Positions 4,735-42,545 of a DNA stretch of 64,000 bases are shown here, in pieces. Below the pieces are notes generated by a model. That model searched no databases, was not told the origin of the DNA, and saw only the letters and a program-made list of their open reading frames with translations. The position numbers were made by a program, and so were the translations under genes. The stretch lies in sequence record MK373778.1. One strand, given 5' to 3'. The stretch comes from Escherichia phage vB_EcoM_WFbE185. Within the stretch, counting starts at the first letter, position 1. Every line of letters starts with the position of its first letter.

Positions 4735-6717
4735 ATGTCACTTCTCTCTCCGGGCGTTGAGCTCAAAGAAACTACCGTACAGAGTACTGTAGTTAATAAC
4801 TCCACTGGTACTGCTGCCCTGGCTGGAAAATTCCAATGGGGACCTGCATTCCAGATTAAACAAATCACTGATGAAGTTGCATTAGTTGATATGTTTGGTA
4901 CTCCTAATACGGATACAGCAGATTATTTCATGTCTGCTATGAACTTCCTTCAATATGGTAATGACCTTCGTGTTGTACGCGCAGTTGACCGTGATACTGC
5001 TAAGAACTCATCTCCTGTAGCAGGCAATATTGAATTCACAATCTCTGCTGCTGGTAGTAACTATGCAGTTGGTGATAAAATTATCGTTAAGTATTTGACC
5101 GAAACTGTTGAAGCAGATGGTTATGTCACTTCGGTTGATGTCGATGGTAAAATTCTTAACATTTATATCCCAACCGGTAAAATTATTGCTCGTGCAAAAG
5201 AAATTAATGAATATCCGGCATTGGGTTCTAACTGGACCGCCGAAGTTGCCAGTTCTTCTTCTGGTCTCTCTGGCGTTATTACAATTGGTTCTATCGTAAC
5301 CGATTCGGGTATTCTGTTAACTGAAGTTGAAACTTCTGAAGAAGCTATTACTTCTCTAACTTTCCAAGAATCTATTAAAAAATATGGTGTCCCAGGTGTA
5401 GTTGCTCTTTATCCTGGTGAACTTGGCGACCAGCTCGAAATTGAAATCGTATCTAAAGCGGACTATGACAAAGGTGCTTCAGCCCAGTTAAAAATTTATC
5501 CTGATGGTGGTACTCGTGCATCTACTGCTAAAGCAATCTTTGGGTATGGCCCACAAACTGATGACCAATATGCAATTATCGTTCGTCGTAACGATGCTGT
5601 AGTTCAGAGCGTAATTCTTTCTACTAAACGCGGTGAACGCGATATTTATGGTAGTAATATCTTTATTGATGATTTCTTTGCTAAAGGCGCAAGCAATTAT
5701 ATTTTCGCTACTGCACAAGGTTGGCCAAAAGGTTTCTCTGGCGTAATCAAACTGGGTGGTGGCTTATCATCCAATGAAACGGTTGACGCTGGTGATTTAA
5801 TGGAAGCTTGGGATTTGTTTGCCGACCGCGAATCTGTTAATGCGCAGTTGTTTATTGCCGGTTCTTGTGCAGGTGAATCTTTAGAAGTTGCTTCTACAGT
5901 TCAGAAACATGTTGTAGCAATTGGTGATTCTCGCCAAGATTGCTTGGTTCTTTGCTCACCGCCACGTGCAACTATAGTTGGTATTCCTGTTAATCGTGCA
6001 GTTGATAATCTGGTTGATTGGCGTACTGCGTCAGGAACTTACACTGATAATAACTTTAATGTAAGTTCTACTTACGCGGCTATTGACGGTAACTATAAAT
6101 ATCAATATGACAAATATAATGATGTGAATCGTTGGGTTCCATTAGCTGCTGATATTGCTGGTCTTTGTGCTCGCACAGACAATATTTCTCAGCCTTGGAT
6201 GTCTCCTGCTGGTTATAACCGTGGACAAATTCTTAACGTTATTAAGCTTGCAATTGAAACTCGTCAACCACAGCGTGATCGTTTGTATCAGGAAGCTATT
6301 AACCCTGTTACTGGTACCGGTGGTGATGGGTATGTTCTGTACGGTGATAAAACTGCCACTTCTGTTCCTTCACCATTTGACCGTATTAACGTTCGTCGTT
6401 TGTTCAATATGGTTAAAACGAACATTGGTTCAGCATCCAAATATCGCCTGTTTGAATTGAACAACGCATTCACCCGTTCTTCTTTCCGTACAGAGACTTC
6501 TCAATATCTACAGGGTATTAAAGCTCTCGGTGGTGTATATAACTTTAAAGTTGTTTGTGATACTACCAATAACACCCCAGCAGTTATCGACCGTAATGAA
6601 TTTGTAGCTACTTTCTACTTACAACCTGCCCGCTCGATAAATTATATTACGTTGAACTTTGTAGCAACAGCAACTGGTGCCGATTTCGACGAACTAATTG
6701 GTGCTGTAGGTGGCTAA
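4735..6717 (+). CDS. 18: tail sheath protein gp18
   Basis: 660 aa; N-terminus MSLLSPGVELKETTVQSTVVNNSTGTAALAGKFQWGPAFQIKQ near-identical to recalled T4 gp18; SD AAGAGGA. Confidence 0.95.
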   Translation: MSLLSPGVELKETTVQSTVVNNSTGTAALAGKFQWGPAFQIKQITDEVALVDMFGTPNTDTADYFMSAMNFLQYGNDLRVVRAVDRDTAKNSSPVAGNIEFTISAAGSNYAVGDKIIVKYLTETVEADGYVTSVDVDGKILNIYIPTGKIIARAKEINEYPALGSNWTAEVASSSSGLSGVITIGSIVTDSGILLTEVETSEEAITSLTFQESIKKYGVPGVVALYPGELGDQLEIEIVSKADYDKGASAQLKIYPDGGTRASTAKAIFGYGPQTDDQYAIIVRRNDAVVQSVILSTKRGERDIYGSNIFIDDFFAKGASNYIFATAQGWPKGFSGVIKLGGGLSSNETVDAGDLMEAWDLFADRESVNAQLFIAGSCAGESLEVASTVQKHVVAIGDSRQDCLVLCSPPRATIVGIPVNRAVDNLVDWRTASGTYTDNNFNVSSTYAAIDGNYKYQYDKYNDVNRWVPLAADIAGLCARTDNISQPWMSPAGYNRGQILNVIKLAIETRQPQRDRLYQEAINPVTGTGGDGYVLYGDKTATSVPSPFDRINVRRLFNMVKTNIGSASKYRLFELNNAFTRSSFRTETSQYLQGIKALGGVYNFKVVCDTTNNTPAVIDRNEFVATFYLQPARSINYITLNFVATATGADFDELIGAVGG

Positions 6718-37369: not shown

Positions 37370-37678
37370 TTACATAAGAAGCAAACGTTCTACCGGAGTA
37401 CCATCAACCGAAATTACTTTATCAAGGCGGAAAGAACGCCACTGACCTAACTTGGTATCGAATGCTCGAACTGATTCACGAGGTTCAGAACGAACTTCTG
37501 TTGCCGGATTGTTATTTTCATATTTGACTTCAAGTTCATCGCGCGAAGCAAACATAGTGCGTACCTCACCGTTAGCCTTTTCAAATACAACACAATGAAC
37601 GCCTACAGACAGAATAGTTTTAATACGTTCACGAAGAACCATAGTCTCTTGTTCAGTTAAAATCATATTATTCACCAC
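37370..37678 (-). CDS. hypothetical protein (T4 31.1 position)
   Basis: 102 aa; synteny. Confidence 0.5.
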   Translation of the reverse strand: MVNNMILTEQETMVLRERIKTILSVGVHCVVFEKANGEVRTMFASRDELEVKYENNNPATEVRSEPRESVRAFDTKLGQWRSFRLDKVISVDGTPVERLLLM

Positions 37679-38249
37679 AAAAGTTTCGGATTTGTTCCCA
37701 ATTCAGAGAACGAAGATTATTACGAGAGTACTGAATTACTTCAATACCGGCTTGTTTTAGAATGTCTGCCCAATTTTCAGGAGATCTGTCATATAATTCT
37801 GCGTATACAACCTTTTTAATACCTGACTGTGTAATAGCTTTAGTGCAATCAGGACACGGAGAAAGCGTCGTATATAACGTAGCACCTTCAATAGAATTAC
37901 CTTTACGAGCTGCAAACAAAATTGCATTCAATTCAGCATGGATTTCATTATTAGCAGACCATGCACTATGAGCCGCTCGATGTTCTTTAGCCAAAACAAA
38001 ATTATCCACCCGTCCAAATGCTGTAGTGCCTTCTTTATGCCCAGCAACGATGACCGGGCTTGGTTTATTCTTCAACCAACCGTTTTCGGATGCATGTTCG
38101 CAACAGTTTGTACCACCTGAAGGAGAGCCATTATAACCTGTAGAAATAATGCGTCCATCTTTTTCAATGACGGCACCAACTTTCCATGAACAACATTTTG
38201 ATTCTTGAGAAATCAAATAAGCAATTTGAAGATATGTGCTAGCTTTCAT
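37668..38249 (-). CDS. cd: dCMP deaminase
   Basis: 193 aa; zinc motifs HAELNA and PCPDC. Confidence 0.95.
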   Translation of the reverse strand: MKASTYLQIAYLISQESKCCSWKVGAVIEKDGRIISTGYNGSPSGGTNCCEHASENGWLKNKPSPVIVAGHKEGTTAFGRVDNFVLAKEHRAAHSAWSANNEIHAELNAILFAARKGNSIEGATLYTTLSPCPDCTKAITQSGIKKVVYAELYDRSPENWADILKQAGIEVIQYSRNNLRSLNWEQIRNFCGE

Positions 38250-39241
38250 TATTGAACCTTATTAATATAAGTTAACAGCTCTTTAGTTTGTTCCCAACTG
38301 ATGCACGCATCGGTAACGGAAACGCCATAGGACATATTATCAGAAATTTTTTGATTTCCTTCATGTAGGAATGATTCTATCATAATTCCTTTGACCAAAT
38401 CATTAGCTGCTAAATTTTTACCAATACCAATTTGATTGCTATAATGCCCAGCAGCGTTTGCATGGCTACAGTCAACCATTACATAATGATTCAGACCTAC
38501 TGCACTTGCTTTGTTAGAAGCTTCTTGAATATCAGAAGAATGATAGTTCGGGCCGTTGGTCCCGCCACGCAATACGATATGCGTATTCTGATTACCTTCA
38601 GCTTCAACAATGCCTACAGTACCATCGACGTCCATACCCATATACCGATGAGGCCAGGCGGCACTATACATCGCGTCTGTAGCTACTTTAATAGAACCAT
38701 TGGTTGCGTTCTTGAAGCCTACGCACATCGGTAGACCTGAAGCAATTTCACGATGTGTCTGACTTTCAGTCGTACGGGCGCCAATAGCAACCCATGAGAA
38801 AATACCAGAAAGATACTTAATCGTGAATGGGTCTAATACTTCAGTTGCTAATGGAAGTCCCATACGTAGAAGTTTACGACACAATGTTCGTGCAACTATA
38901 AGACCGTGGTTCATATCAAAACTTCCGTCAAGATATGGATCATTTACAAGACCTTTCCAACCTACGGTAGTTCGAGGCTTTTCAAAATAAACGCGCATCA
39001 CTAACAGAACATTAGGAAGACGAGTTTGAAGTTCAGCCAGACGTTTGCCGTATTCAACAGCAGCAATAGGGTCATGAATTGAACAAGGACCTACAACAAT
39101 AAGTTTGCGTGGGTCTTCACCGTTCATAATCGAATTAACTTGTTCGCGATGAGAAGCCACTTGTGATGCGTAAGCTTCCGACAAAGGAATAATCTCAGCC
39201 AGTTCTTTTGGAGAAATAAGTTTTCCGACGACAGGTAACAT
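38249..39241 (-). CDS. class I DAHP synthase (phospho-2-dehydro-3-deoxyheptonate aldolase, AroG/AroF/AroH-type)
   Basis: 330 aa; motifs GPCSIHD, KPRTTVGWKG, GARTTESQ, DCSHAN, ESFLHEGNQ, TDACI align with recalled E. coli AroG active-site regions; SD AAGGA; stop overlaps the cd start. Confidence 0.9.
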   Translation of the reverse strand: MLPVVGKLISPKELAEIIPLSEAYASQVASHREQVNSIMNGEDPRKLIVVGPCSIHDPIAAVEYGKRLAELQTRLPNVLLVMRVYFEKPRTTVGWKGLVNDPYLDGSFDMNHGLIVARTLCRKLLRMGLPLATEVLDPFTIKYLSGIFSWVAIGARTTESQTHREIASGLPMCVGFKNATNGSIKVATDAMYSAAWPHRYMGMDVDGTVGIVEAEGNQNTHIVLRGGTNGPNYHSSDIQEASNKASAVGLNHYVMVDCSHANAAGHYSNQIGIGKNLAANDLVKGIMIESFLHEGNQKISDNMSYGVSVTDACISWEQTKELLTYINKVQ

Positions 39242-39361
39242 AACAATCCTTAGGAGATATAAACAGATTCTGATTCAACAATACCTTTAACCGGATTAGA
39301 CAGGCTAAGTTGGTAGTGCTCAGATTTATGACCATTCTCGATAGTAATGAGATAGCTCTCA

Positions 39362-39598
39362 TTATAGTGTTCCATATACTCGAGTTGCTTCAACAAGACC
39401 ATCACTGCCTAATTTAAGATTAGTAATTTGGTCACCATCTTTAGGATTAACGATTATGAGAAAAGAACGTGGAGATTCTTGAATAACTCGTAATGTTGCA
39501 TCTTGGAAACGTTCAGACACTTTATTGATGAGTGCTTGAGCAAATTCTTTTACTTTAATCTGAAATTCGTGTACTGTAATTGGGTTTTCACTTAGCAT
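39362..39598 (-). CDS. hypothetical protein (cd.x region)
   Basis: 78 aa; SD GAGGAA; early promoter upstream. Confidence 0.45.
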   Translation of the reverse strand: MLSENPITVHEFQIKVKEFAQALINKVSERFQDATLRVIQESPRSFLIIVNPKDGDQITNLKLGSDGLVEATRVYGTL

Positions 39599-39626: not shown

Positions 39627-39656
39627 ATAGTATCACAACTCTACCATGTTGTAAAC
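39627..39656 (-). promoter_or_regulatory. T4-type early promoter with flanking inverted repeat
   Basis: Minus strand GTTTAC-N18-TACTAT; 9-bp arms at 39618-39626 and 39638-39646. Confidence 0.55.
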
Positions 39657-41100: not shown

Positions 41101-42187
<1,087 letters not shown>

Positions 42188-42515: not shown

Positions 42516-42545
42516 ATTATACTCTGCTCCCGAGAGTTTGTAAAC
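42516..42545 (-). promoter_or_regulatory. T4-type early promoter
   Basis: Minus strand GTTTAC-N18-TATAAT; short inverted repeat GGAGCA / TGCTCC around the -10. Confidence 0.55.

Follow-up and report, generated by a model that had tools for sequence, protein, structure and literature searches.

DAHP synthase controls, like a valve, how much carbon enters the shikimate pathway, and single-enzyme phage AMGs are known at other pathway control points, for instance talC and zwf in cyanophages and NAMPT in T4-like phages. The Phe site of DAHP synthase is made up of the N-terminal extension and a hairpin (PMC4735112), and the main chain of the inhibitor is contacted by Q151/Q152 and S180/S181 (PMC9529685). 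AroG is rendered feedback-resistant by P150L, S180F or D146N (PMC9529685), and AroF turns Tyr-insensitive upon replacement of P148 or Q152 or deletion of Ile11 (PMC5791370), the engineered AroF set comprising P148L, Q152I, delta-Ile11 and N-terminal variants.

A phage family of these enzymes has been listed in the literature among AMGs whose function is not known, and the papers searched on phage DAHP synthase mention it at annotation level only; enzyme assays, expression data and phenotypes were not found in them. The copy considered here is encoded in a 64,000-nt stretch of DNA (the window; record MK373778.1) from Escherichia phage vB_EcoM_WFbE185, a T4-like phage of the RB69 group. The gene is already known and is not a discovery, as its family, PHROG 5045 (HMM match 9.4e-182 over residues 1-330), already has annotated members in over 200 phage genomes, under the name 'phospho-2-dehydro-3-deoxyheptonate aldolase' in Mosigvirus, Kanagawavirus, Marfavirus, Bragavirus and related genera, and the window copy is a typical member with no distinguishing feature. 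What is new is that the phage enzymes form an old monophyletic clade, that they have diverged in step with Cd under purifying selection, and that their inhibitor pocket has been remodelled.

The gene, its product and its neighbours

The 330-aa open reading frame pointed out in the earlier note was confirmed on the minus strand (Table 1), and the six motifs from which an AroF/G/H-type enzyme had been recognized (GPCSIHD, KPRTTVGWKG, GARTTESQ, DCSHAN, ESFLHEGNQ and TDACI) are all present in the translation. This identity is borne out by the agreement of PF00793 (7e-75, 251.8 bits against a Pfam cut-off of 25.5), the NCBIfam aroFGH equivalog model TIGR00034 (427 bits against 173.2), the PDB search, in which E. 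coli AroF ranks first among solved relatives (6agm, 1.5e-104) with AroG also matched (1kfl, 2e-91), and an AF2 model reaching TM 0.96. The NCBIfam model NF009395 was passed as well (454.8 bits against 343), and the isozyme-specific NCBIfam cut-offs were missed for both AroG (364 vs 568) and AroH (385 vs 463). No KdsA model was among the NCBIfam matches, the strong ones all being of the aroFGH type. KDO8P synthase, the other branch of PF00793, was considered and rejected, as the PDB sequence and fold matches listed are all DAHP synthases without any KdsA match.

The AF2 model of the protein (pLDDT 93.5, pTM 0.92) superimposes on 4hso, 1gg1, 1kfl and 8e0s with TM 0.96 and an rmsd of 1.4-1.6 Å, at 1.4 Å for the first three, solved AroG and Neisseria (NmeDAH7PS) structures being the matches at this TM. 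It contains the (beta/alpha)8 barrel together with an N-terminal extension (helices 11-17 and 22-39) and the beta6a/6b hairpin (strands 198-203 and 209-214). The type I-alpha fold is the same as in AroF (PDB 6AGM, ~50% identity) and AroG (PDB 1KFL/1QR7, ~46% identity), with which the phage protein shares the N-terminal helices, the hairpin, the metal ligands and the PEP/E4P residues including the KPRTTVGWKG loop.

As had been claimed, the metal- and PEP-binding residues are intact. The metal ligands C53, H260, E289 and D311 (AroG C61, H268, E302 and D326) are invariant in 13/13 aligned phage sequences and across alignment A1, and the PEP/E4P residues R83, K88, P89-R90-T91, A155-R156, K177 and R225 (AroG R92, K97, P98-R99-T100, A164-R165, K186 and R234) do not vary either, with 18 of 18 catalytic and substrate positions checked being invariant in the 13 phage sequences. 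Neither a lack of similarity to DAHP synthases nor a substituted metal ligand, either of which the earlier note had held to speak against the assignment, was encountered. The protein is thus a member of the type I-alpha DAHP synthase family with catalytic residues and fold kept, and it is almost certainly a functional DAHP synthase.

The gene is located between pseT/cd.x and cd/31, the operon setting that had been proposed for it, and is directly preceded by a cd.2-like gene whose product shares 96% identity with RB69 Cd.2. Its own Shine-Dalgarno AAGGA and the overlap of its stop codon with the cd start (TAATG), both named in the earlier note, can be read directly from the sequence. The overlap suggests translational coupling to cd, and overlap or direct abutment of the two genes also occurs in a metagenomic T4-like contig (L011, 4-nt overlap) and in Kanagawavirus. 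Coupling, which the earlier note stated outright, is no more than suggested by this overlap; cd also has its own upstream AAGG in the window, and one or two small ORFs separate the two genes in other genera.

In the 120-nt spacer upstream, whose first bases resemble the region around the cd start codon in degenerate form (ATGAGAGCTATCTCA vs ATGAAAGCTAGCACA), no sigma-70-like, MotA-box or late TATAAATA motif of a dedicated promoter was found. Promoter-like sites in the region are not in excess, with 9 found against 9.8 expected from shuffled sequence. The DAHPS gene would belong to an early/middle transcription unit, pseT-cd.x-DAHPS-cd-31, in which it is probably co-transcribed with the dCMP deaminase gene and translated just ahead of cd.

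Table 1. Coordinates of the DAHP synthase (DAHPS) gene and associated features in the window
Feature	Position	Strand	Basis
cd, dCMP deaminase, 193 aa, adjoining the DAHPS gene downstream	37668..38249	-	PF00383 1.7e-26, PHROG 174
13-nt repeat, downstream copy at cd start	38240..38252	-	sequence
TAATG: DAHPS TAA (38251..38249) and cd ATG (38249..38247), one base common	38247..38251	-	sequence
DAHP synthase CDS, 330 aa, type I-alpha, AroF/G/H family, PHROG 5045	38249..39241	-	ORF, Pfam, NCBIfam, PHROG, PDB, AF2
Segment absent from RB69 (DAHPS gene and spacer), 1094 bp	38253..39346	.	blastn window vs RB69
Spacer cd.2 to DAHPS gene, 120 nt	39242..39361	-	
Shine-Dalgarno AAGGA, 5 nt before ATG (39241..39239)	39247..39251	-	sequence
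13-nt imperfect direct repeat ATAATGA(G/A)AGCTA, upstream copy bounding the 1094-bp segment	39353..39365	-	sequence
cd.2-like gene, 78 aa, DUF7320, directly upstream of DAHPS gene	39362..39598	-	Pfam PF24005
Promoter-like site closest to the gene on its strand, located upstream of cd.2 (TTTACA-17-TACTAT with TG)	39627..39655	-	consensus match only

The inhibitor pocket of the phage clade

The earlier note placed a deficit of about 20 residues relative to AroG at the N-terminus, which proved incorrect. Over its whole length the protein falls 20 aa short of AroG, but just 8 of these are missing from the N-terminus (9 in the comparison with AroF). The remaining deficit is spread over minor deletions inside the protein and its C-terminal end, which is shorter than in AroF and AroG, as are the 'QIKDG' and 'EQPRS' loops. 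Between the DAHPS ATG and the nearest in-frame stop upstream there is no in-frame ATG, GTG or TTG, and a miscalled start can therefore not account for the short N-terminus. In the phage sequences 6-10 residues precede the AroG-L17 column, against at least 14 in all others, and the residues lost from the phage clade include AroG D6/D7 and AroF N7/N8.

Scoring of the allosteric-site residues in the alignment, as the earlier note had proposed, revealed a pocket that is rewritten across the phage clade. The clade can be told from bacterial homologues at just nine columns, six of which are in the inhibitor pocket, an enrichment of P=4e-6 for a self-compiled 23-residue pocket list whose members were chosen once the first alignment had been inspected. 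For the published nine-residue inhibitor-site list (AroG M147, Q151, D155, L179, S180, F209, S211, V212 and K214; PMC9529685), which contains four of the nine columns, the direction is the same and the P value weaker (3e-5). The pocket changes, Q151K, S180P, P150I, D155G, F209Y and L175I in AroG numbering, set the phage enzymes apart from AroF and AroG alike (Q151/152, S180/181, P150/151, D155/156, F209/210 and L/M175).

At AroG positions 150, 151, 155, 180, 202, 209 and 211, the signature I-K-G-P-S-Y-G is carried by 23 of the 25 clade sequences, a count including the window protein, with I-R-N-P-S-Y-G (P0020) and P-K-G-P-S-Y-G (P0022, Pro kept at P150) as the two exceptions; P-Q-D-S-(S/A)-F-G occupies these positions in 84/98 non-clade sequences. 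Both anchors of the inhibitor main chain are replaced in every clade member, Q151/Q152 by Lys or Arg and S180/S181 by Pro, and the phage clade does not keep the conserved inhibitor-site residues of feedback-regulated isozymes. Within the clade the pocket columns vary less than the remainder of the protein (entropy 0.41 vs 1.09, P=1e-4), and 13/23 of them are invariant. The regulatory elements, namely the beta6a/6b hairpin and the larger part of the N-terminal extension, are still in place, and the remodelled pocket itself shows strong conservation, a combination that would also fit a pocket still able to bind a ligand.

Since the pocket is rewritten and N-terminal residues are lost, the enzyme is probably insensitive to Phe, Tyr and Trp. 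While the catalytic machinery is unchanged, the allosteric pocket of every clade member is rewritten by the loss of the residues closing the inhibitor site (AroG D6/D7, AroF N7/N8) and by the exchange of both main-chain anchors (AroG Q151 to Lys, S180 to Pro), and most likely none of the three amino acids would then shut off the phage enzyme. The idea of feedback insensitivity put forward in the earlier note is strengthened, mainly by pocket substitutions which it had missed, and escape from canonical aromatic-amino-acid feedback is slightly favoured on these alignments. The phage clade is like the engineered feedback-resistant variants in being naturally substituted or deleted at several of the same positions. 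Different from them, the phage enzyme combines many changes that are fixed and conserved over deep divergence, and its Lys, Pro, Ile, Gly and Tyr residues are not the engineered ones, their effect being a predicted one.

An ordinary feedback-regulated isozyme, that is, a phage copy of Tyr-sensitive AroF whose sole benefit would be a higher enzyme dosage after host shut-off, would be in keeping with AroF as the best solved relative and with the retention of the hairpin together with the bulk of the N-terminal extension. It would also explain the Tyr-sensitive AroF states found at three positions, Gly at AroG-S211, Pro at AroF-P148 and Asp at AroG-D146, the phage enzyme being like AroF in its Gly at the Tyr/Phe specificity position, and some Tyr binding may follow from these states. 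Such a copy is nevertheless unlikely, as both main-chain anchors are replaced throughout the clade, P150/P151 is Ile in all members except P0022, AroF N7/N8 and AroG D6/D7 are missing, and changes at these positions give feedback-resistant AroF and AroG.

Re-specification of the pocket for some other small molecule, e.g., a ligand lacking an alpha-amino group (chorismate, prephenate or an arylpyruvate) or a phage-relevant metabolite, is quite unlikely too. It would accord with the higher conservation of the pocket columns, with the retained regulatory hairpin, and with the loss of acidic N-terminal residues near the amino group of the inhibitor alongside the gain of a Lys and a Tyr hydroxyl. 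However, the segment is also part of the tight-dimer interface (PMC4735112), which could explain its conservation without a ligand, and the bulky side chains of Phe139, Ile141 and Tyr200 may simply fill the cavity. Put as a conserved DAHP synthase whose re-specified pocket is either self-filled, leaving the enzyme constitutively 'on', or tuned to a non-amino-acid effector, the idea would not be a likely one either.

Proposed role in infection

The preferred reading, given a probability of about 0.65 as a whole, is a resident, feedback-deregulated phage DAHP synthase that would feed aromatic amino acids to the phage. The enzyme would sustain carbon flow to chorismate after the host transcription block, and this flow would persist even with host AroF/G/H feedback-inhibited or repressed, with aromatic amino acids thereby supplied for phage protein synthesis.

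An active enzyme could alternatively serve another purpose, either as an E4P drain that would draw the non-oxidative pentose-phosphate pathway toward pentose phosphates for nucleotides or as a source of chorismate for pABA/folate, folate being needed by phage thymidylate synthase and dCMP hydroxymethylase. The argument is one of context, as the DAHPS gene is found beside cd in all T4-like genera examined and shares its contig with frd and td in L011. The pseT-cd interval, however, is generally hyperplastic, with many homing endonucleases and short ORFs that have nothing to do with one another, so the adjacency to cd may be historical, and the neighbourhoods examined contain no other shikimate or folate-branch gene, which leaves this alternative very unlikely.

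Age, distribution and meaning of the gene

The gene was found in 212 phage records; the window protein matches its counterpart in phage p000y at 100% identity and those in some 139 Mosigvirus records at 98% or more. All 30/30 NJ bootstraps recover the phage clade as monophyletic, and its best cellular relatives show only 50-55% identity, with none above 55%. The slot between pseT and cd is constant in Mosig-, Kanagawa-, Kagamiyama-, Marfa- and Bragavirus as well as in the metagenomic contig, and the amino-acid identities of DAHPS and Cd across comparisons run in parallel (77/79, 77/78, 68/69, 68/76 and 58/62%). The dN/dS values lie at 0.15-0.25, with 0.17 for the single unsaturated pair; within Mosigvirus, the window and L001 differ too little (dN 0.005, dS 0.004) to inform on selection. 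With a GC content of 41% and a GC3 of 29%, the gene resembles neighbouring phage genes, and it is an old resident of enterobacterial T4-like phages.

The gene falls outside the canonical T4 set, as the earlier note had stated, and is not universal among close T4 relatives, being missing from T4, RB69, moha, JK36, JK42, mar005P1 and all Tequatro- and Dhakaviruses. The existence of these DAHPS-minus relatives means that it is dispensable in nature. In the RB69 annotation cd.2 abuts cd, and RB69 keeps a single copy of the 13-nt repeat that bounds the missing segment in the window (Table 1), the pattern expected of a deletion between repeats. A link to arabinosyl-hmC was considered and rejected, as RB69 has that modification but lacks the gene; neither DAHP synthase nor the shikimate pathway comes up in a paper on RB69 DNA glycosylation.

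That the gene is a recent host capture, a contaminant or a moron decaying like a pseudogene, with no infection role, is hardly credible: RB69 and several other Mosigviruses do without it, but the 212 phage records, the monophyletic clade, the low dN/dS, the invariant catalytic residues and the constant syntenic position all speak against decay or contamination, and recent capture was rejected on identity (<=55% to any cellular protein), phage-like composition and phylogeny.

By analogy, the feedback-deregulated enzyme proposed here would be like talC, zwf and NAMPT in that one phage gene, which would be expressed during infection, supplies a host pathway with the enzyme that controls its flux or forms its bottleneck, and it is unlike them in that the pathway is the shikimate pathway. 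The practical value is modest: metabolic engineers might find use for a type I-alpha scaffold that is feedback-resistant by nature, and the pocket changes are specific candidate mutations. The system is experimentally tractable, with E. coli hosts, aroFGH mutants, standard assays, and natural phages that are close relatives but differ in whether they carry the gene. A lytic phage bringing its own, apparently unregulated valve would be a clean single-gene metabolic takeover in a well-studied phage group, and if the pocket has indeed been re-specified, T4-like phages would hold a one-gene override of the entry to aromatic biosynthesis. The presence/absence polymorphism within Mosigvirus (mogra and mobillu vs RB69 and moha) offers a ready-made test of what such an override would be worth to the phage.

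A DAHP synthase gene next to cd

The window protein is very probably a functional DAHP synthase, as the earlier note had proposed. It matches Pfam DAHP_synth_1 (7e-75) and, end to end, PHROG 5045 'phospho-2-dehydro-3-deoxyheptonate aldolase' (9e-182), and among the NCBIfam models its 427 bits clear the cut-off of 173 for the equivalog TIGR00034 aroFGH and its 455 bits that of 343 for the subfamily NF009395. Its scores stay under the cut-offs of the models specific to the AroG and AroH isozymes. Of the solved structures, E. coli AroF 6agm came closest (1.5e-104), along with Neisseria meningitidis DAH7PS and E. coli AroG 1kfl/1gg1 (2e-91). In agreement with these assignments, an AlphaFold2 model built from a 52-sequence alignment (pLDDT 93.5) superimposed on type I-alpha DAHP synthase structures with a TM of 0.96 and an rmsd of ~1.4 A, and includes the beta-hairpin insertion typical of the subclass. 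All motifs quoted previously were found in the ORF translation, and alignment to AroG (reference verified as 100% identical to 1gg1/1kfl) bore out the claim of intact metal- and PEP-binding residues: the metal ligands are all there, as is every PEP/E4P-binding residue checked, and none varies among 13 phage homologues (window C53, H260, E289, D311, R83, K88, P89-R90-T91, A155-R156, K177 and R225).

Every gene from pseT through rIII lies on the minus strand, and plus-strand ORFs within the DAHPS interval found no support as genes. The Shine-Dalgarno sequence (SD) and the TAATG overlap are as reported earlier (coordinates in the table). The overlap is compatible with the translational coupling to cd that had been proposed, but is not proof of it, since an AAGG belonging to cd itself stands ~8 nt ahead of the cd ATG, within the DAHPS 3' end; small ORFs separate the two genes in three genera. 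No promoter motif was found in the 120-nt spacer upstream of DAHPS. Because promoter-like matches were no commoner than in shuffled sequence, we infer co-transcription with cd.2 and cd from the gene layout.

Features of the DAHPS region and of related loci
Feature	Position	Strand	Basis or remark
DAHPS ORF, 330 aa	38249..39241	-	ORF listing of the window
DAHPS SD, AAGGA	39251..39247	-	5 bases ahead of ATG
DAHPS stop, TAA	38251..38249	-	last base overlaps the ATG of the next ORF
cd, dCMP deaminase, 193 aa	37668-38249	-	ORF after DAHPS; PF00383, PHROG 174
gp31.1 homologue	37370-37678	-	WYL_2 / Sm-like SH3 barrel, PF10902
Segment differing from RB69	38253..39346		1094 bp
55-aa ORF	39195-39362	-	ATG overlaps cd.2 stop; runs into DAHPS start in another frame
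Nearest promoter-like site	39655..39627	-	motif match
Nearest promoter-like site	41408..41384	-	motif match, MotA-box-like
Nearest promoter-like site	42545..42516	-	motif match
Homing-endonuclease-like ORF, 243 aa	40331-41062	-	GIY-YIG + NUMOD3; between cd.4-like gene and pseT
TATAAATA	41079-41072		T4 late-promoter consensus, just upstream of the 243-aa ORF
RB69 cd	NC_004928 7743-8252		annotated 169 aa
Gene of P0022	metagenome contig (ENA) 2517-3515		phage-clade DAHPS
DAHPS-family gene, Aeromonas phage HJ05 (79 kb)	4899-6062		annotated hypothetical protein

Distribution, inheritance and loss

The gene was found by tblastn in 212 phage records, compared with 1216 that carry Cd homologues. At least 95% identity is shared by 139 of them, Mosigvirus phages of E. 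coli and Shigella; a further 47 (60-80%) are Kanagawa-, Kagamiyama- and Marfavirus and related Klebsiella, Serratia and Erwinia phages, and 26 (<60%) are Bragavirus of Proteus and a few unrelated phages. The window comes from a Mosigvirus and shares 99.7% identity with p000y across 3.4 kb, the DAHPS proteins of the two being 100% identical. The slot pseT ... cd.x - DAHPS - (0-2 small ORFs) - cd - 31 is common to Kanagawavirus, Kagamiyamavirus, Marfavirus, Bragavirus and a metagenomic T4-like contig.

Identities to the window of DAHPS and Cd from the same genomes run in parallel (77/79, 77/78, 68/69, 68/76 and 58/62%), and the GC of 41% and GC3 of 29% are similar to those of neighbouring genes. 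The closest cellular proteins, from unrelated phyla together with enterobacterial AroF, are only 50-55% identical; the 25 phage-type sequences form one clade in 30/30 NJ bootstraps, and dN/dS is 0.15-0.25 between genera (0.17 for the sole pair with unsaturated dS). The combined picture is of an old phage gene, vertically inherited, kept by selection and lost repeatedly, and not of a recent capture from a host.

The gene lies outside the T4 set, as the earlier note had it (cd.1 adjoins cd in T4), and is not universal among close relatives, for RB69, the type Mosigvirus, is without it. There the cd.2 stop overlaps the cd start directly, and a 1094-bp segment is the sole difference from the window in this region. 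It is flanked by an imperfect 13-nt direct repeat, ATAATGA(G/A)AGCTA, a duplicated cd start of which RB69 has one copy, the footprint expected from deletion between short repeats. This junction recurs in ~11 records (RB69, ECO111 5-P, mar005P1, JK36, JK42 and moha among them) and, at lower identity, in Dhakaviruses.

Several neighbouring features were also recorded. The 55-aa ORF starts MRAIS..., resembling the MKAST... of cd, and looks less like a gene than like a non-coding remnant of a duplicated cd 5' end. In RB69 and phage 348Ecol098PP, cd.4 and pseT abut and the homing-endonuclease-like ORF is missing; Proteus phage PM2, too, has a homing endonuclease adjoining pseT. The window Cd aligned with RB69 over its full length by tblastn (90% identity), and the RB69 annotation may be truncated C-terminally, or there may be an indel. 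Many phage records call the gp31.1 homologue a 'tail fiber protein', a label probably propagated from weak similarity to PHROG 10657.

P0022, a metagenomic protein, is the only phage-clade member with Pro at AroG P150 (signature PKGPSYG); it has 10 residues ahead of the AroG-L17 column, a slightly longer N-terminus, and its gene has other neighbours, cd not being adjacent. It is possibly an early-branching form of the phage enzyme. DAHPS-family genes 35-38% identical, annotated only as hypothetical proteins, occur in the non-T4-like Aeromonas phage HJ05 and human faecal phage contigs MT837410 and MT838377, and look like independent acquisitions. Two aroF-like genes (45-48% identical) on the short contigs CAKLQH020000056 and CAKLQH020000043 ('Acinetobacter phage MD-2021a') may belong to mis-binned bacterial contigs.

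The inhibitor pocket and possible escape from feedback

The N-terminus had been described as about 20 residues short, but the actual loss is 8-9 (phage residue 8 corresponds to AroF 17, and residue 5 to AroG 13), the rest of the length gap in the alignment coming from two small deletions within the protein and a C-terminus that ends earlier. The short form is genuine, as no alternative in-frame start was found upstream of the ATG, and the loss still matters because it includes AroG D6/D7 and AroF N7/N8. Ahead of the AroG-L17 column stand 6-10 residues in 25/25 phage-clade sequences and at least 14 in the other 98/98.

Across these 123 sequences, only nine columns separate the groups, with a single residue shared by at least 90% of the phage sequences and another by at least 80% of the bacterial ones. 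The inhibitor pocket holds six of them (AroG P150 to I, Q151 to K, D155 to G, L175 to I, S180 to P and F209 to Y), and of the remaining three, L156 to I and T223 to A are one or two sequence positions from pocket residues. The enrichment gave P=4e-6 with our own 23-residue pocket list, compiled after a first alignment had been inspected, and P=3e-5 with an independent 9-residue inhibitor-site list (PMC9529685). Q151/Q152 and S180/S181 contact the inhibitor's main chain, D155 forms a stabilising salt bridge, and P150L, S180F and D146N render AroG feedback-resistant (PMC9529685); AroF becomes Tyr-insensitive upon replacement of P148 or Q152 or deletion of Ile11 (PMC5791370). Several positions at which one mutation is enough to abolish feedback are thus altered, in fixed form, in the phage clade.

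From these sequence comparisons, the phage enzyme may well escape canonical feedback (probability roughly 0.55). An ordinary Tyr-regulated copy, to which the similarity to AroF might point, is unlikely beside the fixed pocket changes. Slightly less likely still is a pocket re-specified for another effector. The remodelled pocket is not decaying, with 13 of its 23 columns invariant within the phage clade and a mean entropy of 0.41, against 1.09 in the remainder of the protein (P=1e-4); such conservation would fit another ligand, or a structural need, as the pocket lies in the tight-dimer interface. A different metabolic purpose, either to drain E4P in favour of pentose phosphates or to supply chorismate for folate, is improbable, and a functionless remnant can practically be dismissed given the invariant active site and low dN/dS.

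DAHP synthase controls flux at the entry to the shikimate pathway, and the host isozymes are restrained by feedback and by TyrR/TrpR repression. Once a T4-like phage has shut off host transcription, the host cannot raise its DAHP synthases; a feedback-blind phage enzyme made early in infection would by itself increase the flow to chorismate and so to the Phe, Tyr and Trp that go into phage proteins.

The gene is already catalogued: DAHP synthase, AroF or AroG is the label in many phage records, and the gene comes up in three papers, among them the phiC120 genome paper, which remarks on the domain (PMC8022965), and a Klebsiella phage study, which treated the gene, in a Kanagawavirus, as an amino-acid AMG (PMC11845039); no biochemical or genetic study of it was found in the literature searched. 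The earlier note observed correctly and interpreted the gene essentially rightly, to which the present analysis adds the N-terminal correction, evidence that RB69 lost the gene by deletion, and the concentration of clade-defining changes in the allosteric pocket.
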